A stretch of 64,000 bases of DNA from Calditrichia bacterium (GTDB lineage: Bacteria; Calditrichota; Calditrichia; RBG-13-44-9; J075): NCBI GenBank assembly GCA_050633245.1, contig JBOEGD010000005.1, positions 60,076-124,075 on the forward strand, given 5' to 3'. The position numbers were made by a program, and so were the translations under genes. Shown piece after piece: positions 25,418 through 48,707 of this stretch (positions are counted from its first letter, which is position 1; each line of letters begins with the position of its first letter). The notes under the pieces were generated by a model that worked only from the letters and a program-made list of their open reading frames with translations, was not told the DNA's origin and did not search any database.

Positions 25418-25582
25418 TTGTTGAGGCGCTGGTTAATTGTGCAACTCTACAAGTTATGTCTTTCTCTCCCTCCTTATATCTTGCAAGAAATCCCCAGCAA
25501 CATTGTCCAATAATAAAACCGCCTTCTGATAACGTTAATGTCAGATATGTAAACCTTTAATGCTTCAAAGCCGGAAAGTATT

Positions 25583-27883
25583 ATGAAAAAACAACTATTT
25601 ACAGCAATCGCTCTTATCCTGTCACTCACAACGATTCACTCACAGGATTTTTATGATGTCAGCAACGTAAACTCAATTGAGATAACATTTTCAGAGTCGA
25701 ATTGGGATCAAATTTTAGATTCCTACTATGCGGCGGGAAATGAACAAAGACTTGTTGGCAGTGTCGTTCTCAATGGGGTACAATACGACAGTGTCGGCGT
25801 TCGCTATAAAGGCAACAGCACCTATAGCGCAAACAGGGTAAAAAACCCGCTGAATATTAAGCTCGACCATATCATTGATTATCAAACCATTGATGGATAC
25901 GGCACATTAAAGCTCGCCAATGTTTTCAAGGATCCCAGTTTTGTTCGAGAGGTTCTCAGTTATGAGATTGCCCGAAAGTATATGCCAGCCAGTCAGGCAA
26001 ACTTTATAAATGTTACCATAAACGGAACGCTAATCGGACTCTATTCCAGTGTTCAGGATGTTGATAAGTTGTTTATGGGAACAAACTTTTTTAGCAATGA
26101 CAATCCTACATTTAAGGGAGAAGTCGCTCAGAGTGGACCGCCAACATTTCTGCCAATCTGGACATATCTCGGTACCGATTCTTCACAGTATGCCAGCTTT
26201 TTCGAAATAGATTCAGACTATGGGTGGGCAGAACTAATCAACTTTTTGGATGTGCTGAACAACTCGCCGGCCTCGGTTGAGGATGTTCTCAATGTAGACC
26301 GGCATCTTTGGATGTTAGCTTATGATATTCTGATGGTGAACCTCGATGCACCAATAAATTTTGCGCACAACTATTATCTCTACCAGGATGACGCGGGCCG
26401 GTTTAATCCGATAATCTGGGACCTGAATGAAAATTTCGGCGGGTTTACCAGACTTCTTGCCGGAGGTAATCTTGGCACAACACAGATGCAACAGCTGGAT
26501 CCGTTTCTTTATGCTACGAACTCCAGCCTTCCGATCATTAGCAAATTTCTTTCCGATCCAACGTATCGGAAAATTTATGTTGCGCATATGAAAACGATTA
26601 TTGAAGAGAACTTTTCCAACGATTGGTATCAAACCAGAGCGCTCGATATTCAAAGTGTTATTGATGCTGATGTTCAAGCAGACCAGAACAAGTTTTTTAC
26701 CTACAGTGATTTCCTTGCAAATATTAATAACACCGTTGGGACTGGCGGTCCGGGAAGTCAACCGTCCGTTGGATTAACTCAGCTTATGGATGCGCGGGTA
26801 AACTATATAATTTCTCAGAGCGAGTTTCAGGCTACTGCACCAGTGATAAGTAATGTCGGTACTTCTTCACTTGCCGTGCAGCCATTCACCAGTGCCGTGT
26901 TTAACGCTGAGGTTGCTTCAGCGAATCAGGTGATGCTTGCCTATCGGGATAATGAAGTTAACCGTTTCGAAAAGGTTGAGATGTTCGACGATGGAAATAA
27001 TGGCGATGGTGCTGCAGGCGACGGTGTCTATGGCGTTTCCATCACTGCCGGTGCTTCTCCCGTTCAATATTATATTTACGCAGAAAATAATGATGCGGCG
27101 GCTCTCTCCCCAGCGCGTGCAGAATATGAATTTTATCTGCTTCCGGTTGCTACAGGAGATTTGGTCATCAATGAGTTTATGGCAGATAACGATAGTACTG
27201 CGATGGATCAGGATGGAGAGTTCGACGACTGGGTAGAGTTATATAATAATAGCGGGTCCGAAATTTCACTTGCCGGTCTTTATCTTTCGGATGATGAGAC
27301 TGAATTGACAAAGTGGGCATTTCCTGATACCTCGATTGCCGCGAATGGCTATCTGATAGTTTGGACCGATAACGATAGTGGTCAGGTTGGACTGCATGCA
27401 AATTTTGCCCTTTCACGCAGCGGCGAAGCGGTCTGTCTCACGGATTCGGATGGTATCACAAGTTTGGATCAGGTCGTGTTTGGTACTCAGACAACCGATG
27501 TTAGTACCGGACGTTTTCCAAATGGCACGGGAGACTTTGCTGAAATGCCGCCATCTTTTGCCGCAGAAAACACCAATGGCATTACCGGTATTGAAGACGT
27601 TGTGAATAATACCATTCCTCAACAGTATGGACTGGAGCAGAATTATCCGAATCCATTTAACCCGTCGACAACCTTCAGGTTTACTTTGGCTCAGGCGAGT
27701 CGCGTGTCTTTAACCGTTTACAACCTCGTTGGTCAAAAAATTCAGACTGTTTTTGCAGATAACCTTGCAGCAGGTGAGCATCAGTATGTTTGGCGGGGTG
27801 AAGGTCAGGCGTCGGGTGTGTATTTATACACCTTACAGACAGAATTTGGTTCGGAAAGTAAGAAGATGGTATTGATGAAATAA
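25583..27883 (+). CDS. Secreted CotH-kinase family protein with lamin-tail domain and C-terminal sorting (T9SS-A-like) domain
   Basis: GVRYKGNST, HNYYLY, WDLNE; MFDDGNNGDGAAGDGVYG; VINEFMADN..DWVELYN; EQNYPNPFNPSTT...KKMVLMK. Confidence 0.9.
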   Translation: MKKQLFTAIALILSLTTIHSQDFYDVSNVNSIEITFSESNWDQILDSYYAAGNEQRLVGSVVLNGVQYDSVGVRYKGNSTYSANRVKNPLNIKLDHIIDYQTIDGYGTLKLANVFKDPSFVREVLSYEIARKYMPASQANFINVTINGTLIGLYSSVQDVDKLFMGTNFFSNDNPTFKGEVAQSGPPTFLPIWTYLGTDSSQYASFFEIDSDYGWAELINFLDVLNNSPASVEDVLNVDRHLWMLAYDILMVNLDAPINFAHNYYLYQDDAGRFNPIIWDLNENFGGFTRLLAGGNLGTTQMQQLDPFLYATNSSLPIISKFLSDPTYRKIYVAHMKTIIEENFSNDWYQTRALDIQSVIDADVQADQNKFFTYSDFLANINNTVGTGGPGSQPSVGLTQLMDARVNYIISQSEFQATAPVISNVGTSSLAVQPFTSAVFNAEVASANQVMLAYRDNEVNRFEKVEMFDDGNNGDGAAGDGVYGVSITAGASPVQYYIYAENNDAAALSPARAEYEFYLLPVATGDLVINEFMADNDSTAMDQDGEFDDWVELYNNSGSEISLAGLYLSDDETELTKWAFPDTSIAANGYLIVWTDNDSGQVGLHANFALSRSGEAVCLTDSDGITSLDQVVFGTQTTDVSTGRFPNGTGDFAEMPPSFAAENTNGITGIEDVVNNTIPQQYGLEQNYPNPFNPSTTFRFTLAQASRVSLTVYNLVGQKIQTVFADNLAAGEHQYVWRGEGQASGVYLYTLQTEFGSESKKMVLMK

Positions 27884-40450: not shown

Positions 40451-41251
40451 ATGGAGAATTTGATGGATGTTCGGCACTATCTAAAACGTATAGATTCCTC
40501 GTTGCGGCAAGAGGCTTCACTAGACTATCTAACTCAATTACATCGCAACCATTTGATGTCTGTACCGTTTGAAAACCTGGATATTGTGCTTGGCAGTCCG
40601 ATTGAACTGTCTAACGCTGCTATCTTTCAAAAGATTGTTGAAAACAATCGCGGTGGATTTTGTTATGAGTTAAACGGACTTTTTGCCTGGCTTTTAACCG
40701 AGCTTAAGTTTGATGTTACAATGCTGTCGGGAAGAGTAATTAAAGACGGAAAACCAGGGCCGGAATTTGACCACATGTTGCTCTTGGTTAAACTAGAGAA
40801 ACCTTACTTAGCCGATGTCGGGTTTGGTGAGTCATTTACCGAGCCAATCCCATTGGATGATCAGGAACATTGTCAGCGCGGTGTTTGCTATCGTGTCTTG
40901 GAGCGGGAAGATGGGTTAATGTTGGCCGAGAAAAAACCGGGGAAATTGTGGGAAGATCAACTGCTTTTTACGCTTGAACCAAGAGGGTTAAGCGATTTCG
41001 AGGATACTTGCCTGTATCAGCAAACAGACCCAAATTCTACATTCACGAACCACACCAAGTGCTCTATGGCCACCGAAAATGGCCGCGTGACCTTTTGGGA
41101 TAATCGTCTGATAATTACCTCCGATAAAGAGCGGACAAAACAACCGATTGTGAGCGAAGAACAGGTGCGAGGAATTTTACGTGACCATTTTGCAATTATT
41201 TTACCGGAATTTGTTAAGAAGCAGAAGTTACTGCGCCCTATTTCTTCTTAG
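40451..41251 (+). CDS. Arylamine N-acetyltransferase
   Basis: PFENL, RGGFCYELN, DH, DVGFG (Cys-His-Asp triad). Confidence 0.92.
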   Translation: MENLMDVRHYLKRIDSSLRQEASLDYLTQLHRNHLMSVPFENLDIVLGSPIELSNAAIFQKIVENNRGGFCYELNGLFAWLLTELKFDVTMLSGRVIKDGKPGPEFDHMLLLVKLEKPYLADVGFGESFTEPIPLDDQEHCQRGVCYRVLEREDGLMLAEKKPGKLWEDQLLFTLEPRGLSDFEDTCLYQQTDPNSTFTNHTKCSMATENGRVTFWDNRLIITSDKERTKQPIVSEEQVRGILRDHFAIILPEFVKKQKLLRPISS

Positions 41252-41561
41252 TCATAATGAACTCCTTAGCCTCATTTAAAAGATCTGTCCAAATTTTCTC
41301 ATCTTCTTCTTCAACCAATACCCATTCCTTGAAAACCCGCCCGGCTGGCGCGAATGGTATGCCAATGCCCTGCTGAATCAATTCCTGTACCCGTTTTGCA
41401 GGTAATTTTGCGATGAGACTGCCGGTTTTGTGCTCGGCCGACGCAAAAAAGTCGCCGTTGATACGCAGACAGGGAAAACCCATCATCGTACCTTTATCTA
41501 CATCTTTTTGTTTTAGAAGCGGATCTGCCAGTGTCCAAAAAAAATCAAATGAATCAGACAT
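41238..41561 (-). CDS. Small TfoX/MmcQ-like protein
   Basis: GTMMGFPCLR, KLP..RV, GRVFKEWV. Confidence 0.75.
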   Translation of the reverse strand: MSDSFDFFWTLADPLLKQKDVDKGTMMGFPCLRINGDFFASAEHKTGSLIAKLPAKRVQELIQQGIGIPFAPAGRVFKEWVLVEEEDEKIWTDLLNEAKEFIMTKKK

Positions 41562-41578
41562 ATTTTCTCCAGGTAGGT

Positions 41579-42115
41579 TTATTGATTTTCCAATATTCGC
41601 TGAAGCTGCTGTCGATGTACTAAATCATGGCCAGCGTAAAGACGAATCATGTGCTCTATGGATTCTTCACCGCGTTCGCTATGAACGCCGGTTCTGGCTC
41701 GCTCTGCTTCAGTAAGCGATTGAATAAGTCGCAGATTACTTTCACGTAAGACGCGAATTCGTTTTAAGGCCAGATCAAGATCTTCTTCGGAATACTTTAG
41801 GCGATTTGCCCACAAATCCTGATCATAACCGGTGATCTCCGGTTTATCATGCCCCAGAATTAACCGCAGCCGCCATCCCCACACAAGCTCGGAATCGGCC
41901 ATGTGAAGTACAACTTGTTTCGCAGACCACTTGCCAGGCGCTTCCGGCTTATTAAGCTGATCTGTACTATGGCTTAGAACAGAACTCTCCATAACATCCG
42001 CCAGCTCTGTAAGAACGGCTAGTGGTTCCTGATCCCCCAGGAGTGAAAGCGTTGCTTGAATATAGGCGGCGGCCTCTTCTTCGGCACCGGTAGCCGGGTT
42101 TGTAAATACAGACAT
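41579..42115 (-). CDS. DinB family protein
   Basis: GKWS...HMADSE, YDQD.WA, AGHDLVH. Confidence 0.9.
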   Translation of the reverse strand: MSVFTNPATGAEEEAAAYIQATLSLLGDQEPLAVLTELADVMESSVLSHSTDQLNKPEAPGKWSAKQVVLHMADSELVWGWRLRLILGHDKPEITGYDQDLWANRLKYSEEDLDLALKRIRVLRESNLRLIQSLTEAERARTGVHSERGEESIEHMIRLYAGHDLVHRQQLQRILENQ

Positions 42116-42140
42116 GAATTCTCCTGGGTGAAAAGTCTTT

Positions 42141-42671
42141 TTAATTATTTCGGAATCTATAGCGAAACTCCTGTATAATGCGATCGTGATTAGGAAAGCT
42201 TAGCGCAATAAATGCGAGAAAAACGACGAGGGACGTCAGATTTATCCAATAAATCGGTTCTTCTGGAATGAAGCCGTCCTGCACGCCGATGAGGCAAGTA
42301 ACCAGGCCAAGAAAAACTGGTGCTTCCAGAATAGCAAGCCGTACGATATGTGCTGTTTTCATCTTTTGCCAAATTATTTGTGGGGTTGACATAACATTTG
42401 CCGGAATATTGCTATACATTTTTTCGTAGATAAGCTTCGATAGAAAAATGGCACTTATCAAAACGATAAAATGCACAATGGTCATTGTTGGAACCGAGCT
42501 TTGTTCTGCTGCAGGAAGATCACCACCCTGTGTTGATAAAAAATATATGACAAAAAGAAAAAGAGATACCCCCATCGCCAGTGCTAAATAAATTATTTGC
42601 AATGTCTTCAACTGATTGTTGTCTACAAAAGCAGAAAACTGTTCGCGGGTTACGGGGCTTCTATCGGTCAT
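42141..42671 (-). CDS. Hypothetical 4-TM membrane protein
   Basis: Hydrophobic helices; AILEAP motif. Confidence 0.8.
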   Translation of the reverse strand: MTDRSPVTREQFSAFVDNNQLKTLQIIYLALAMGVSLFLFVIYFLSTQGGDLPAAEQSSVPTMTIVHFIVLISAIFLSKLIYEKMYSNIPANVMSTPQIIWQKMKTAHIVRLAILEAPVFLGLVTCLIGVQDGFIPEEPIYWINLTSLVVFLAFIALSFPNHDRIIQEFRYRFRNN

Positions 42672-42751
42672 GGCACGCTCCTGTCGTATCGTCGAAAAAT
42701 GAGTATGAATAGAGCCTTAAATATTGCTGAGAATATGCAGGAAGGCAATCG

Positions 42752-43171
42752 TTATTTGAGGATCATCATACGAGTAATTAGAGGCGACTCGTTGCCGAGG
42801 ATGATGCGCCAAAAATAAACTTCTCCCATAACACTCGGGGAGGTAAAGTGGCTTTTAAACTTACCGGGCTTCAGCAGACCAGCTTTGTGATTGGTGATCA
42901 CTTTTCCCGTTTGAGTAAAAACTCTTATTGTTACCTCTGTTGCTTCGAAGACCTCGAAGTGAATGGAGGTAACGGATCAGAAGGGATTCGGGAAGTGAGG
43001 GAGGACTCTTCCCAGTTTATTTGCCAGAAGCGTTTGGGAGGCGGTAGCGGAAGAACCGTCTGGGAGCACTTCTATTTTCCATTGAAGGGATTCTTGCTGT
43101 GCGAAGAGTGGCAGTGAGAACAATGATACAGATAGAATGACAGGAATGGTTTGAAAGAAGAGCCGTTTCAT
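42752..43171 (-). CDS. Secreted protein with sorting-domain-like Ig fold and in-frame UGA (candidate selenoprotein; alternatively a nonsense pseudogene)
   Basis: GAGAGG RBS; signal peptide; ...HFPNPF[TGA 42977-42979]SVTSIHFEVFEATEVTIRVFTQTGK...GEVYFWRIILGNESPLITRMMILK TAA; frame open 74 codons past the TGA. Confidence 0.7.
42930..42973 (-). promoter_or_regulatory. Putative bacterial SECIS hairpin
   Basis: UGA-UCC-GUUACCUC-CAUUCA-CUUCGA-GGUCU-UCGAAG-CAACA-GAGGUAAC: perfect 8-bp and 6-bp stems, G-first apical loop at +24. Confidence 0.6.
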
Positions 43172-43280
43172 TCGTACAAGCCTCTCATTATATGTGAAGT
43201 TGCTTTATTGAGAATGGTAAAGTTTAGTGGCTATGACCAGTTTCTACGACCAGTCATAGCACGTATAGAATTATAAAATC

Positions 43281-43721
43281 CTATTTATGGCGATAGAAAA
43301 TCTTTGCCACAATTTTCCAACCATCTTTGCCCTTATATAGTGACAGATAGTCGGTGAAGACATGTTTGCCGTCGCGATGCAGTTCGACGCGTGCTATGGC
43401 TGCATTACCGCTATAGTCGACAACCTCAAAGGTATGCTCAACGTTTGGTTTGGGCTCATCGCCGGTCTTTTTTGCATTTGCCTTTTCGATGTTCTTCATC
43501 CAGTCGGCAATGGAGACTTTGCGCAAACCATCTTCGCCAAAGATCGTCATAGTAAAGTCGGGGTGAAAGCCGGCGCGAATCTTGTCTAAATTGCCTTCAA
43601 TATGAATGCCTTCAACATAAGCACTGGTTACAGTGTTCTTAATTGCATCGGTTTCTTCAGATGCAAACAGTGAAAATGAGCTAACAAAACCGACAATAAA
43701 AAGGGTGACCATGCGTTTCAT
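43281..43721 (-). CDS. NTF2-like (putative lumazine-binding) secreted protein
   Basis: YVEG, GFHPD, FTDYLSLYK..DGWKIVAKIF. Confidence 0.85.
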   Translation of the reverse strand: MKRMVTLFIVGFVSSFSLFASEETDAIKNTVTSAYVEGIHIEGNLDKIRAGFHPDFTMTIFGEDGLRKVSIADWMKNIEKANAKKTGDEPKPNVEHTFEVVDYSGNAAIARVELHRDGKHVFTDYLSLYKGKDGWKIVAKIFYRHK

Positions 43722-43832
43722 GGAGACTCCGGGGTTTAATAAATGATGGGATGATTTTCAGCAATGTATACGAAGCTTCTATTTTAAAGTTCCTTTGCTG
43801 AGTGACAAGATTATAAGCAGCTTGTAAAGAGA

Positions 43833-44597
43833 TTATTTTTTATCGGATGTGGCAGTTTTGCTTCTGTCGTGCGGTATCATCGACCGTTTCACCAATGTCT
43901 CTTCTACAGACAAGTTTCCATCCGCGATCTTATATGTTAGATTAATGTAGTCGACCACATTATGATGATATATATCTTTGCTATATGGCGTAAACTTAAA
44001 GATTTTATGTAGCCTTAGTGATTTGTCGTAATAAATGTCTTCGAGAAATGGGTTGGTCTCTATCTGTTCTGAAAGCTGGCGCACTTCATCTTTGGAGAGG
44101 ATTTCTGTGATACCTTTATAACGGGATTTGAAATAGGCGAACAAGGTTGCATGTAGTTCAATGATTTGCCTTTGTTCCTCGCGTGAGGCATCATCACTTA
44201 ACAGGCTGTTGATAAAGGATTTGAGCTCTCTAGAATCAATAGATTGATACGAAGTTATTTTACCTTCGTATTCGCTTCTAAGGGCAATTACATCATAGTA
44301 CAAGCCATGTAGTTGCAAATTCGTGAAATCCATAATTGAAATAATTTCAGTATCTCGATAAGTCCCTATCGAGTCAATTTCATACTTGTAACTTTTGTCC
44401 TCAATAAGTTGTTCTGTTTGTTCAATAGCAGACTTTGTAAAAAGTCGCGTTATAGGAACCCCCAGAGATTGCTGGGTCAATGTATTGCGGAGAATACAGA
44501 ATTTTGCAATGTCTTCATATTTTGTTGAGTCGGATTGGCCAAAGAGAAATGAGGTGAGTAAGAAACTGATTGTTAAAGCGAATAGCCATCTCTTCAT
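43833..44597 (-). CDS. Hypothetical secreted protein
   Basis: Signal peptide; 254-aa ORF. Confidence 0.75.
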   Translation of the reverse strand: MKRWLFALTISFLLTSFLFGQSDSTKYEDIAKFCILRNTLTQQSLGVPITRLFTKSAIEQTEQLIEDKSYKYEIDSIGTYRDTEIISIMDFTNLQLHGLYYDVIALRSEYEGKITSYQSIDSRELKSFINSLLSDDASREEQRQIIELHATLFAYFKSRYKGITEILSKDEVRQLSEQIETNPFLEDIYYDKSLRLHKIFKFTPYSKDIYHHNVVDYINLTYKIADGNLSVEETLVKRSMIPHDRSKTATSDKK

Positions 44598-44631
44598 TAT
44601 GAGACCTTTCGGTTTTTCAGCATCGGTAATG

Positions 44632-45270
44632 CTAGCATCCTATTTTAGAACAAAACTCTTTCTGCAAATGTTTACGATAGTTCTCGATTAGCTTGGTTCT
44701 TTCTTCGGAGGAAATGGAGGCCACGCCGTGCGCAACAAACGGCTTTAAAGCATTCCACTTCATATAGCCAAAAACATCGTCAGACATATTCATAATCCGT
44801 CGGTCGTACGCTCGTTTCTCTTTGGCATCCTCTGCGCCGCCGGTGGTAACAGAGAACATAACCGTTTTGGCAGGCAGCGTTTTGCTTCGCCCATACGCGA
44901 AACCATAGGATAGTACCCTGTCTATCCAGCCTTTTAGGATTCCGGGATAGCTGCCCCACCAGATAGGAAACTGTAAAATTACGGCATCGGCCCATTCCAG
45001 TTTGTACTGCTCCTGGCGAATTTCCAGAACGAATCCGCCGTATTGACCGAATGTTTTTTGGGCTGAGATTAAGTCCAGTGGTTCGTTCTCAGGAAATTTT
45101 GCAAAATCTGCTCGTCCAGCGGCGCCACCGAAGCCGGATTGGCAGAGATTGGATTGCCGTATTTCGCAACCTTGTTTTGTCAGAATGTCAGCAGCAGTAT
45201 CTTTTAAAGCATGGTTAAACGATTGAACTTCCGGGTGTGCGGTTACCAATAATATTTTAGATTTAGACAT
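44632..45270 (-). CDS. NAD(P)H:quinone oxidoreductase (flavodoxin_2 family)
   Basis: AHPE..SFN, QFPIWWGSYPGILKGWIDRV, TTGG. Confidence 0.92.
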   Translation of the reverse strand: MSKSKILLVTAHPEVQSFNHALKDTAADILTKQGCEIRQSNLCQSGFGGAAGRADFAKFPENEPLDLISAQKTFGQYGGFVLEIRQEQYKLEWADAVILQFPIWWGSYPGILKGWIDRVLSYGFAYGRSKTLPAKTVMFSVTTGGAEDAKEKRAYDRRIMNMSDDVFGYMKWNALKPFVAHGVASISSEERTKLIENYRKHLQKEFCSKIGC

Positions 45271-45299
45271 CGCAATCTCATTTTCAGATGGTGCAGGTG

Positions 45300-45836
45300 T
45301 TAGTCGTTATGCTGTAAGAACGCGAGAATTTCACTGCGATGCAAGTGATTGCTAAGCCAGTCTTTGAACTCAATGGCTTTTTGAAAATCGGTTTCTCCCA
45401 GTTTCTCCTCCATGCGTTGTTTTGACAAAGCTTTTTTGGCGTCGCGGCGTATGTCTCGTTGCCAGGAGTCTGATATTACATTGTGCAGCTGACGATGTAA
45501 TTTGTGCTGTTTTAATAATTGCCACTCGCCGCCATCCAACCATATTCCACCAGACCCGGGTGACCAGTCCAGATGAATTGGCAGCTCCGCGGAAATGTGA
45601 AAACGTCTCAATAATCCACCAGACTCGGGACAGATTTTAGCGCGAGCATCCTCCGGCGTCACCTCAATGGGTTGAAATTTCTGGGCAGAGGTTTCTTCGT
45701 CCGTGGTTTCAAGCCAGTGCTGATAATCATTAAATCGAATATAGACCCCTTTGCTCTGAATACATTGCCAGACAGGGAGGTTTTCCTCAAGGGCAGTTTC
45801 AAGCATATCCAATCGCGGAAAAAGTGGACTCTTCAT
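45300..45836 (-). CDS. Tandem zf-TFIIB-like domain protein with degenerate cysteines
   Basis: GGIWLDGGEW signature; knuckles read SPLF, CIQS, CPES, SPGS. Confidence 0.75.
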   Translation of the reverse strand: MKSPLFPRLDMLETALEENLPVWQCIQSKGVYIRFNDYQHWLETTDEETSAQKFQPIEVTPEDARAKICPESGGLLRRFHISAELPIHLDWSPGSGGIWLDGGEWQLLKQHKLHRQLHNVISDSWQRDIRRDAKKALSKQRMEEKLGETDFQKAIEFKDWLSNHLHRSEILAFLQHND

Positions 45837-45905
45837 TTAGTACCTTTCCGATAGAATGTTGTTTACCTTATTATTCGCATTAAAACTCGGTTTTTAGAAA
45901 AATAC

Positions 45906-47093
45906 TTAGATTTCTTTCAGCGCCTGTGATAAATCGGCAATCAGATCTTTTGCGGATTCCAACCCAACCGAAATGCGGATGTCGCCGAGTGAAATACCCA
46001 ATGCAGCAAATTGCTCTGCTGGTAATTCCTTCAAATAACTGATGGCCGGTGCGTATACCAGACTTTCGTGTCCGCCCCAACTGACGCCAATCTGAAAGTA
46101 CTGTAAGCTGTTAAAGAAGCGCTTAATTTTTCTAAGCTGTTGCGTCTTCAACTCAAAGCTCATTAATCCGCTATATCCGGTCATTTGCTTTTTAGCCAGT
46201 TCGGCCTGTGGAAAACCGGGCAGCCCGGGATAGCGAACTTGTTTTATGGCCGTATGAGTTTGTAAAAACTCCGCGACAAGCATGGCGTTTTCCTGATGTT
46301 GTTTTAATCGCATCGGTAATGTGCGCAGGCTGCGCTGTAATAGAAAGGCCTCAAATGGTGCCATCTTGGCGCCAAAGAACTCGTAGCTGTTTTCGCACAT
46401 CTCAAGGATATCCTTGTCGCTACCCATTACAACGCCTGCAATAATGTCGCTGTGACCGCCGAGGTATTTCGAGCAGGAATGAATTTCCAGATCGACGCCC
46501 ATTTTCAACGGCTGCTGAAAAATCGGTGTAGCCCAGCTGTTGTCGATTAACGTTTTTATACCTCTTGATTTTGCAAGCTCGCTGACTGCTGAAATGTTTT
46601 GCAGAGTAAATATCGCTGAGGATGGTGATTCCAGGTAAATGACTTTAGTGCGCTCATTTATAGCCTCTTCGAAATCGCTAACTTGTTCTCCTGCTACAAA
46701 TGTGGTATCGATATGCATCTTTGTACGCAGGAAGCGGTTTAGCAGATTGTTAGTAGGACCATAACAATTCTTTACCGCTATGACGTGGTCTCCCGGTTCC
46801 AGAAAGTGAACCATTGCAGCCGTGACTGCGCCAATTCCGGAGCCAAATAATCGAGCTCGTTCTGCACCAGCCAGCATGGCCAGTTTTTCCTCAACCTGAT
46901 GTACCGTTGGGTTTCTCACGCGCGTATAAATGTTAGAGTTGTCGCGATCATCAAATGCGGTATCGATGGCTTCCCAGTCTTCAAAAGTAAATAGTGAATT
47001 CTGGTAGATTGGAGCGACAACCGCGCCCTTGCTTTGTTGACGGTATTCTTTATAATGTACGAGACGTGTTTCAAGATCGGGTGGTTTTGTCAT
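45906..47093 (-). CDS. PLP-dependent trans-sulfuration enzyme (Cys/Met metabolism, cystathionine/methionine lyase-like)
   Basis: YTR..NPT, LESP, DNSWATP, SCSKYLGGHSD, SWGG.ESL, RISVGLE; start taken as ATG 47093. Confidence 0.92.
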   Translation of the reverse strand: MTKPPDLETRLVHYKEYRQQSKGAVVAPIYQNSLFTFEDWEAIDTAFDDRDNSNIYTRVRNPTVHQVEEKLAMLAGAERARLFGSGIGAVTAAMVHFLEPGDHVIAVKNCYGPTNNLLNRFLRTKMHIDTTFVAGEQVSDFEEAINERTKVIYLESPSSAIFTLQNISAVSELAKSRGIKTLIDNSWATPIFQQPLKMGVDLEIHSCSKYLGGHSDIIAGVVMGSDKDILEMCENSYEFFGAKMAPFEAFLLQRSLRTLPMRLKQHQENAMLVAEFLQTHTAIKQVRYPGLPGFPQAELAKKQMTGYSGLMSFELKTQQLRKIKRFFNSLQYFQIGVSWGGHESLVYAPAISYLKELPAEQFAALGISLGDIRISVGLESAKDLIADLSQALKEI

Positions 47094-47117
47094 TTGAAGA
47101 TCCTGGTTTTTTGTTAA

Positions 47118-47294
47118 TGAAAAGTGAAAAGTGAAAAGTGAAAAGGCAATAAGGCAATAGGCAATAGGGCAATAGGGCAATAGGGCAATAGGGCAATAGG
47201 GCAATAAGGCAAACTTGTTTTGTATTCTACCTATTTCAAACGATAAATTTCGTTCACCGTTCACCGTTCACCGTTCACCGTTCACCGTTCACCG
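47118..47294. repeat. Short tandem repeat block
   Basis: (TGAAAAG)x4, GCAATAGG-type units x8, then (CGTTCAC)x6 overlapping the nhaC stop. Confidence 0.95.
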
Positions 47295-48707
47295 CTCTCT
47301 GTTTACGTTTCCCCTATACGAGTAAATCGCTATAACCGGTGCAATAATAAGGTTTATCAGCGAAAGCAATTGCCAGTGCCAATAGTCGGCAAACGGTACG
47401 CCCAGCGTTACTACCATGAAGATTGCGGTAGGTGTCCAGGGGACGAGTGACTCGAGCATCGTTCCTGCGTCCTCAAGGGAACGTGATAGTACCGGACGCG
47501 GTATGTTTAAATCGTCATATTTTTTCTTGAATGCATCGCCGACAATAAAGCTGGTGGCGTACTGATTACAGGTTAGTGAATTTGTCACTGCAGTTGCTGC
47601 AAGGCTGGACAAAACCGTGCTGGCTCTGGATCTTGTAAAGCGAAATATGCGATTCACTACTGTCGACATCGCGTCGATGAGATCAATTGTGCCGATAAAG
47701 AAGAAAACGGTAAAAGCAATAATCACAGCATCTATGAGCGCATAGAGGCCGCCGCGATTTAGTAAAGTCTGTACATTCTCGGAAGGACTTTCTATCCATG
47801 TTGCCATTGAAGTATGAAAGCCTTTGTACATCGACTGTAAAATATCGGACAGACCGAACGGTTGAAAGGCGAGCGCCAAAAGTACCGCTATGAACGCAGA
47901 AATAATCATGGTGGGTAAAATAGCCTTTCCACGAATAGAACCGTATAGAATAATAAGCGGCGGTAGCGCCATGAAAATGTTAAAGTGAAATATAGACTGT
48001 AGAGAATTTAGAAATGGCAACATGGTTTCTGAACCGCTGGTGAGAATCGTCGGTGGATGTATAAATCCCAACACGCCAAAGCCAGCCGAAGCCAGAATCG
48101 CTGAGGGAAAAGTCGTGACGGTCATTGAACGAATATGGTCGTATAGATCAACATTGGTTGCAATTGCAGCCATGTTGGTGGTATCCGATAGCGGAGACAT
48201 TTTATCGCCAAAGGCAGCACCACCAATAATCGCACCTGCAGTAATTGCAAGATCTGCTCCCATTGCACCGGCAATTCCGATTAACACAATACCAATAGAT
48301 CCAACTGATCCCCAGGAGGTGCCGGTAAGAATGGAAAAGATTACCGGCACTAGAAAGGCGAGCAGATAGAATACATTCGGATGAATTGTTTTAAGTCCAT
48401 AGTAGACCAGCATTGGAATCGTTCCACAAATCATCCAACTTCCAATGATTAGGCCAATCGTCAGCAGAATAAAGAATGCGGGCATTGCACTCGAGACCTT
48501 CGCGACAATGGATTCCTGAATTTCTTCCCAGCTGAATCCCAGCCAGAACATTTCCGCAACCGCAAATGATGCTGCAATAATGAAAACTATTTCCAAGGGA
48601 AAGGCCGGCAGGCCTTGAACCTGCGGGCGAAAAATTAACCCATAGCCTATTGTGGTTAGCAAAACAAGAATTGGGAACAAGGCGTAACGAAATGTTGGCG
48701 TTTTCAT
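47289..48707 (-). CDS. nhaC: NhaC-family antiporter/amino-acid transporter
   Basis: GTIP, GTSWG, GDKMSPLSDTTN, LSRSLED, PW. Confidence 0.9.
   Translation of the reverse strand: MKTPTFRYALFPILVLLTTIGYGLIFRPQVQGLPAFPLEIVFIIAASFAVAEMFWLGFSWEEIQESIVAKVSSAMPAFFILLTIGLIIGSWMICGTIPMLVYYGLKTIHPNVFYLLAFLVPVIFSILTGTSWGSVGSIGIVLIGIAGAMGADLAITAGAIIGGAAFGDKMSPLSDTTNMAAIATNVDLYDHIRSMTVTTFPSAILASAGFGVLGFIHPPTILTSGSETMLPFLNSLQSIFHFNIFMALPPLIILYGSIRGKAILPTMIISAFIAVLLALAFQPFGLSDILQSMYKGFHTSMATWIESPSENVQTLLNRGGLYALIDAVIIAFTVFFFIGTIDLIDAMSTVVNRIFRFTRSRASTVLSSLAATAVTNSLTCNQYATSFIVGDAFKKKYDDLNIPRPVLSRSLEDAGTMLESLVPWTPTAIFMVVTLGVPFADYWHWQLLSLINLIIAPVIAIYSYRGNVNRER

Follow-up and report, generated by a model that had tools for sequence, protein, structure and literature searches.

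The window analyzed here, a stretch of 64,000 nucleotides from a Calditrichia bacterium (GenBank assembly GCA_050633245.1, contig JBOEGD010000005.1, positions 60,076 to 124,075 of the forward strand), carries on its minus strand a small gene whose frame is broken by a single in-frame UGA at codon 65, with a hairpin resembling a selenocysteine insertion sequence (SECIS) directly behind it. SelB-dependent insertion of selenocysteine (Sec) at this codon was the best-supported reading of the gene, and we regard it as fairly likely. The gene represents a candidate new selenoprotein family within a known type of system, unusual in having no redox context.

The read-through gene and the hairpin behind its UGA

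The gene consists of a single frame of 139 codons and a TAA (minus strand, 43171..42752), running from the ATG at 43171 to the TAA at 42752-42754, and the TGA at 42977-42979 is its sole break. The 64-aa open reading frame upstream (42977..43171, minus strand) terminates at this TGA with ...HFPNPF, and gene callers output just this short form. Past the TGA, 74 further codons follow in frame, and the read-through product of 139 residues contains no Cys. The truncated frame, its continuation and the Cys-free product had all been claimed in a preliminary description of this DNA and were confirmed from the sequence. The product is laid out as a leader (MKR, a hydrophobic run and PLFA/QQ), about 30 residues with one predicted strand, PHFPNPF followed by the UGA, and 74 residues leading to ...TRMMILK. 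The codon score of the downstream half was 0.170 per codon, compared with 0.233 +/- 0.079 for real genes, and none of 3,600 off-frame windows reached 0.170. A match to Por_Secre_tail, a profile of the C-terminal sorting domain of the type IX secretion system (T9SS), spans the UGA (residues 60-95). The AlphaFold2 model showed seven strands within residues 54-136, with a confidence score (pLDDT) of about 90 for residues 71-110. As the preliminary description had supposed, a thioredoxin fold was not seen; the model is a seven-stranded sandwich. Neither the hairpin nor the gene recurs elsewhere in the genome, which ruled out a repeat or mobile element.

Three nucleotides (UCC) separate the UGA from the lower stem of the hairpin, in which GUUACCUC (42973-42966) pairs with GAGGUAAC (42937-42930). 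Above an internal loop of CAUUCA/CAACA, the upper stem formed by CUUCGA (42959-42954) and UCGAAG (42948-42943) is closed by the loop GGUCU (42953-42949). This 8-bp and 6-bp hairpin, claimed earlier from inspection of the letters, was reproduced here as both the minimum free energy (MFE) and the centroid structure, with an energy of -18.9 kcal/mol and a z score of -3.14, and none of 200 dinucleotide shuffles was equally stable. The rules for bacterial SECIS elements given in PMC13188914 call for an apical loop of 3-9 nt, an upper stem of 4-16 bp, a G within the first two loop positions and a spacing of 16-37 nt; the candidate, with its 5-nt loop GGUCU, 6-bp upper stem and 23-nt spacing, satisfies them.

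Sec decoding is possible in this organism, and its machinery is complete. The assembly (6.35 Mb, 59 contigs, 97% complete) contains a tRNA-Sec with anticodon tca on contig C31, selB (359.8 bits, cut-off 242) with selA adjoining it (561 bits), and selD (358.9 bits), all three protein genes scoring above curated cut-offs and selD having an in-frame TGA of its own. The four components that the preliminary description had proposed to look for were thus all present. A screen for TGA codons with open frames on either side singled out four genes, whose families were then assigned by NCBIfam profiles: SelD (TIGR00476), FdhA (TIGR01591), an AhpD-like peroxidase-related protein with the motif CPFU (TIGR01926, above cut-off), and a thioredoxin (Trx)/DsbD-like protein with the motif WUGPC. 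All four of these reference selenoprotein genes have a two-tier hairpin whose apical loop starts with GGUC, at +17, +17, +18 and +22 nt from the UGA. The FdhA loop is GGUCU, identical to that of the candidate, which stands at +23. A GGUC(U) loop 17-22 nt past the UGA is thus a tight SECIS consensus specific to this organism, and could seed a fuller search of the selenoproteome.

No Rfam SECIS model matched the candidate. This miss carries no weight because Rfam also failed on three of the four reference signals of this genome. SECIS_3 matched the FdhA signal (C12:39627-39685) below its gathering score (34.8 versus 63 bits), and the SelD, AhpD-like and Trx-like signals were unmatched. Since one signal was sub-threshold and the three others were missed, current Rfam models are poor SECIS detectors in this lineage. 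A covariance model built from the four reference signals was dropped, as MAFFT failed to align their lower stems and the 5-nt loop of FdhA shifted the register, and a pattern scan was substituted for it. The scan was restricted to GGUC loops; selenoprotein genes with other loops would escape it.

The scan showed how specific the signal is in the genome. A generic hairpin of the bacterial SECIS type followed 1.2% of 19,981 random TGA triplets, and 139 of 221,555 TGA triplets had, 14-27 nt behind them, a loop beginning with GGUC on a stem of 5 bp or more. In 30 of those 139, the MFE fold places the loop on a two-tier hairpin of 9 or more nested pairs. Open frames of at least 34 codons ahead of the TGA and at least 74 behind it accompany only five of the 30, namely the four reference genes and the candidate, and the remaining 25 lie in short junk frames. 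Among the 220 sorting tails of the genome, a GGUC hairpin at that place was found in the candidate only, and an equally stable fold at that place in four, the candidate counted. The positions of the features are collected in Table 1.

Table 1. Positions of the candidate gene, its elements and the UGA codons of the reference genes
Feature	Position	Strand	Basis or remark
Whole read-through gene	42752..43171	-	139 codons + TAA; single in-frame TGA = codon 65; frame best of six (codon log-odds) in both halves
Predicted N-terminal signal peptide, ~residues 1-24 (MKR...PLFA/QQ)	43100..43171	-	predicted from sequence by eye, boundary putative; P0014 shows same pattern
In-frame UGA, codon 65, proposed Sec codon	42977..42979	-	aligned with Asn in generic sorting tails, Cys in P0007
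SECIS-like hairpin: 8-bp lower stem, internal loop, 6-bp upper stem, GGUCU loop (42949-42953)	42930..42973	-	fold, shuffles, genome scans; loop from +23 nt of UGA
T9SS sorting-domain-like beta-sandwich, residues ~57-139, across UGA	42755..43003	-	profile matches, homologues, AlphaFold2 model
Sigma-70-like promoter match TTCTCA-16-TATAAT	43187..43214	-	16 nt 5' of ATG; 2 such matches in region versus 2.1 expected from shuffles
UGA of SelD	C14:57202-57204	-	beyond window
UGA of FdhA	C12:39630-39632	+	beyond window
UGA of AhpD-like CPFU	C26:111079-111081	+	beyond window
UGA of Trx/DsbD-like WUGPC	C30:97507-97509	-	beyond window

Around the candidate, a same-strand run (41238-48707, minus strand) encodes a DinB_2 protein, a 176-aa membrane protein, a 254-aa protein without family, a lumazine-binding-like protein, a flavodoxin-like reductase, a Cys/Met pyridoxal-phosphate enzyme and a Na+/H+ antiporter. 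These neighbouring genes are mutually unrelated, and no functional clue was obtained from them. A first screen with a codon model returned mainly antisense shadows and was set aside.

Homologues and the residue at the UGA site

Searched exhaustively with HMMER, 1.84 billion representatives gave 1,288 matches, nearly all of them sorting tails. The sole homologue found for the N-terminal half was the protein P0014 (E 2.4e-7, 41% identity, residues 1-64 aligned without gaps to residues 1-64), which is exactly 64 aa long and ends with ...IPHYPIPF at the same point as the open reading frame of the window. This shared end would be the strongest argument for Sec insertion, drawn from a homologue known from protein alone. 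A base-call error in the window is not sufficient as an explanation because a second independent sequence ends at the same residue. With residues 1-64 as query, a word-based protein search gave no match, and an alignment-based search gave P0014 only. Alignment of the N-terminal half against metagenome contigs confirmed none of 416 pattern matches as an orthologue, and the 16 genome and 34 metagenome stretches carrying the IUPAC pattern P-H-[FY]-P-[NIK]-P-F-TGA were all junk frames. A TGA inside the sorting tail of one relative (G014) turned out to be merely its natural stop.

Among full-length relatives, the closest homologue was P0007, in which Cys is aligned with the UGA. It shares with the candidate the motif PH[YF]PNPF (3 of 273 retrieved proteins), an identically spaced FEVFE (4 of 273) and a Trp-containing strand before the domain. 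Small metagenomic proteins made of a leader and the domain have Cys or Trp instead of the usual Asn after PNPF. In addition to P0007, Cys is at the site in P0158, P0160, P0010, P0159, P0152, P0012 and P0272, and W, Y, F, S and N also occur. The preliminary description had looked to homologues with Cys at position 65; this was borne out for the closest full-length homologue, but Cys is not conserved, the residue being C, W, Y or F in relatives and N in generic tails.

One group of metagenomic relatives, subfamily B (P0010, P0153, P0154, P0156, P0157, P0159, P0161, P0271 and P0272), switches among C, W, Y and F at the site after PNPF, and in its W forms W also replaces the R of other members at one or two further sites. 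Diversifying selection or decay could lie behind the switching, or W could be the printed form of UGA. All Trp forms lie on short contigs and share a single data source. Some gene callers may choose code 4 on short contigs, which prints UGA as W, and the Trp forms might in part be further UGA forms read in this way.

The preliminary description had also seen in the downstream half a likeness to the sorting tail of another protein of the window, which it took for CotH, and the tail it quoted is present there; it belongs to a 776-aa protein at 25553-27883 on the plus strand. The likeness to sorting domains was upheld in so far as Por_Secre_tail (PF18962) and TIGR04183 both matched across the TGA, but both matches were below cut-off. 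The small homologues scored 15.8-40.7 bits against the sorting-domain profile. A Foldseek search with the AlphaFold2 model against the PDB gave generic Ig-like matches only, none with E <= 0.001. Because both profiles were sub-threshold and the structure search returned generic Ig-like matches only, the candidate is not filed as a member of the T9SS sorting domains. Since the protein is little more than the domain, its function may reside in the domain, which would then not be a cleaved signal.

The host genome encodes PorU (789.5 bits, cut-off 420). Two PorU-like sortase genes (789 and 539 bits) and about 220 T9SS-type C-terminal tails were counted in it, and on this account the organism is a very heavy user of T9SS.

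Evidence against Sec insertion and rival explanations

A number of findings weigh against Sec insertion, and the first group of them concerns the hairpin. The peptide F-E-V-F-E (TTC GAG GTC TTC GAA) largely writes the upper stem and the loop, TTCGAA being its own reverse complement, and FEVFE is also present in Cys and Trp homologues. When the peptide was kept fixed and the sequence was recoded with the codon usage of the genome (n = 3,000), a two-tier GGUC hairpin appeared in 1.67% of the recodings and equal stability in 1.3% (z -2.56); the same test on the four reference signals gave 0.1-2.2%. Because 1.67% of synonymous recodings reproduce the two-tier GGUC hairpin, it is about 60-fold, not thousands-fold, likelier under selection for structure than from the peptide alone. 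The perfect 8-bp lower stem is unexplained by the FEVFE motif. The pair closing the loop is A-U in the candidate, whereas C adjoins the loop in all four reference signals.

The second group concerns the residue at the site. In subfamily A, the relatives with lipoprotein-type leaders, the site reads C, C, C, W and W, and in subfamily B, whose sequences are mostly alike by eye, it reads C, C, W, W, Y, Y and F; a single 90% cluster contains C as well as W forms. Generic tails have Asn at the site in 214 of the 220 of this genome and in the great majority of the 150 matches listed. The alternative residues are all encoded by T-N-N codons one step apart, and for several of these a single step makes a stop. 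Masking of the site left the Cys forms no nearer to the candidate than the generic Asn forms (all 58-65 bits), and a tree of the domain only placed the candidate beside two Asn forms, with a weak support of 0.71, inside a clade that also holds subfamily B.

The third group concerns the gene and its product. The read-through protein has no CxxU or UxxC motif, and codon bias is weak in its N-terminal half (0.046). Por_Secre_tail scored 17.3 bits against a cut-off of 27 and TIGR04183 19.1 bits against 23, in each case with the first half of the profile only. If the domain is a cleaved sorting signal, a Sec placed there would be without obvious use. Orthologues were absent from 40 relatives, from the order (37 genomes) and from the phylum (86 genomes), where only generic sorting tails of about 30% identity were found, and from 285 genomes of a second phylum with 13 candidates scored per genome; Bacteroidota were sampled by four single genomes.

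Much of this evidence bears on the rival that survives best, a pseudogene or an assembly error. According to it, the TGA arose recently from TGG or TGY, at a site that tolerates mutation and is prone to stops, and the hairpin is a by-product of FEVFE combined with a chance lower stem. The C, W, Y and F of the relatives, which are one or two steps from TGA, are consistent with such a change, as are the hairpins in 1.7% of synonymous recodings, the orphan state of the gene, the metagenome-type assembly of 59 contigs and the weak scores of the sorting-domain hidden Markov models; moreover, scanning very many windows yields some such coincidences. P0014, which ends at the same residue at 41% identity, would then require either a second independent mutation of that codon or an old stop; a downstream half as intact and gene-like as this one cannot be squared with the latter. 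FEVFE does not account for the perfect 8-bp lower stem, and such a hairpin was found in only 1 of the 220 sorting tails of the genome. On this balance we consider a pseudogene or an error unlikely, though a serious contender.

The UGA could also be a true stop, the product being a secreted peptide of 64 aa that ends with ...PNPF and is conserved with P0014, the downstream half a relic and the hairpin a structure of the 3' mRNA. Two homologues of equal length and end, and gene callers that give only the 64-aa form, are what such a peptide would predict. A neutral region at 41% identity should be scrambled, yet the downstream half has 74 open codons, gene-like codon usage, family motifs, the family C-terminal end and a confidently predicted fold. 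It retains the hallmark residues of the family and ends with the family-typical ...MMILK-stop. Because the downstream half is undecayed at this identity, an old inactivating stop or a true stop after 64 aa is unlikely, and the minus strand showed no terminator-like site. We give a true stop very little credence.

Sec-independent read-through, in which the hairpin stimulates near-cognate insertion of Trp or Cys, would fit the Trp and Cys at the site in homologues and the stable hairpin after the stop, but it is highly improbable given a loop sequence and distance that specifically match the SelB-type signals of this genome and the full Sec machinery, and we know of no hairpin-driven Trp read-through in bacteria, a point on which no literature search was made.

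Proposed mechanism, meaning and comparison with known systems

Under SelB-dependent Sec insertion, the gene would encode an exported protein of 139 residues in which a short linker with a single strand connects a signal peptide to a T9SS sorting-type beta-sandwich, and the UGA at codon 65 would be read as Sec. The hairpin, beginning 3 nt past the UGA, would present its GGUCU apical loop at +23; this loop would be the binding site of SelB loaded with Sec-tRNA(Sec), and Sec would reach the stalled ribosome in this way, as presumed at the FdhA, SelD, AhpD-like and Trx-like genes. A classical redox-pair function appears unlikely because there is no CxxU or UxxC motif and no other Cys, and relatives tolerate C, W, Y and F. 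As a weak guess, strand 1 might open with the Sec as a lone, exposed chalcogen through which the protein makes a covalent or metal contact on the cell surface. The Sec, or the Cys of relatives, might possibly bind a partner, for instance the sortase PorU, a cysteine protease, through a selenenyl-sulfide or a metal; alternatively, export or display of the protein might possibly depend on the selenium supply. The fullest version of the proposal is that this is the first selenoprotein family on a T9SS sorting-type domain, a tiny surface or secreted beta-sandwich acting outside the cell, whose only reactive residue is a Sec that replaces the Asn of PNPFN at the start of strand 1 and lacks a redox partner. 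That version we hold to be doubtful.

To our knowledge, nearly all prokaryotic selenoproteins known are intracellular or periplasmic redox enzymes with a catalytic site of Cys or Sec. If Sec insertion at this codon is real, the use of Sec extends to a minimal exported beta-sandwich without a redox motif, which raises the question of what role a lone selenol plays at the cell surface. SECIS-first screens tuned on the signals of a genome's own selenoprotein genes would then find families missed by screens for Cys/Sec homology. If it is refuted, the case stands as a warning of how convincingly a palindromic peptide motif, F-E-V-F-E, can mimic a SECIS through its codons.

DUF1573 (PF07610), a family of exported, non-thioredoxin proteins of beta-sandwich type predicted to contain Sec, resembles the candidate in these respects; compared by description only, it has a different domain and a different motif, UGC. 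With this motif it is listed among the selenoproteins in Table 1 of PMC13188914. The candidate family, which the preliminary description had proposed as new, is absent from the 119 prokaryotic selenoprotein families tabulated in this 2026 catalogue (PMC13188914), although other family papers or supplements might list one. In full-text searches of the literature, no paper turned up that connects Sec with type IX secretion or with sorting domains.

The small metagenomic proteins consisting of little but a C-terminal domain (P0007, P0158, P0160, P0040 and P0155, and a second group with P0010 and P0153-P0161) share with the candidate their size, a leader, the Trp strand, and PNPF followed by C or W, and three of them have FEVFE(A) at the same spacing. 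They differ in their lipoprotein-type leaders (ending in C, compared with LFA/Q in the candidate) and are 20-29% identical to it, and their kinship is unsettled in the masked tree. All of them are without assigned name or function. With the T9SS type A sorting domain (PF18962, TIGR04183), the candidate shares PNPF, a predicted beta-sandwich of about 80 residues, a C-terminal ...K and 30-37% identity to many tails. It differs from this domain in its sub-cut-off scores, in the UGA in place of the near-invariant Asn after PNPF, and in containing almost nothing but the domain.

With the FdhA, SelD, AhpD-like and Trx-like WUGPC genes of its own genome, the candidate has in common an in-frame UGA, a two-tier hairpin, a GGUC(U) loop 17-23 nt downstream and the same machinery. 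In contrast to these four genes, it has no redox motif, no second Cys and neither a thioredoxin nor any other known selenoprotein fold; its loop is closed by A-U instead of being flanked by C, and its relatives have C, W, Y, F or N at the site instead of a fixed Cys.
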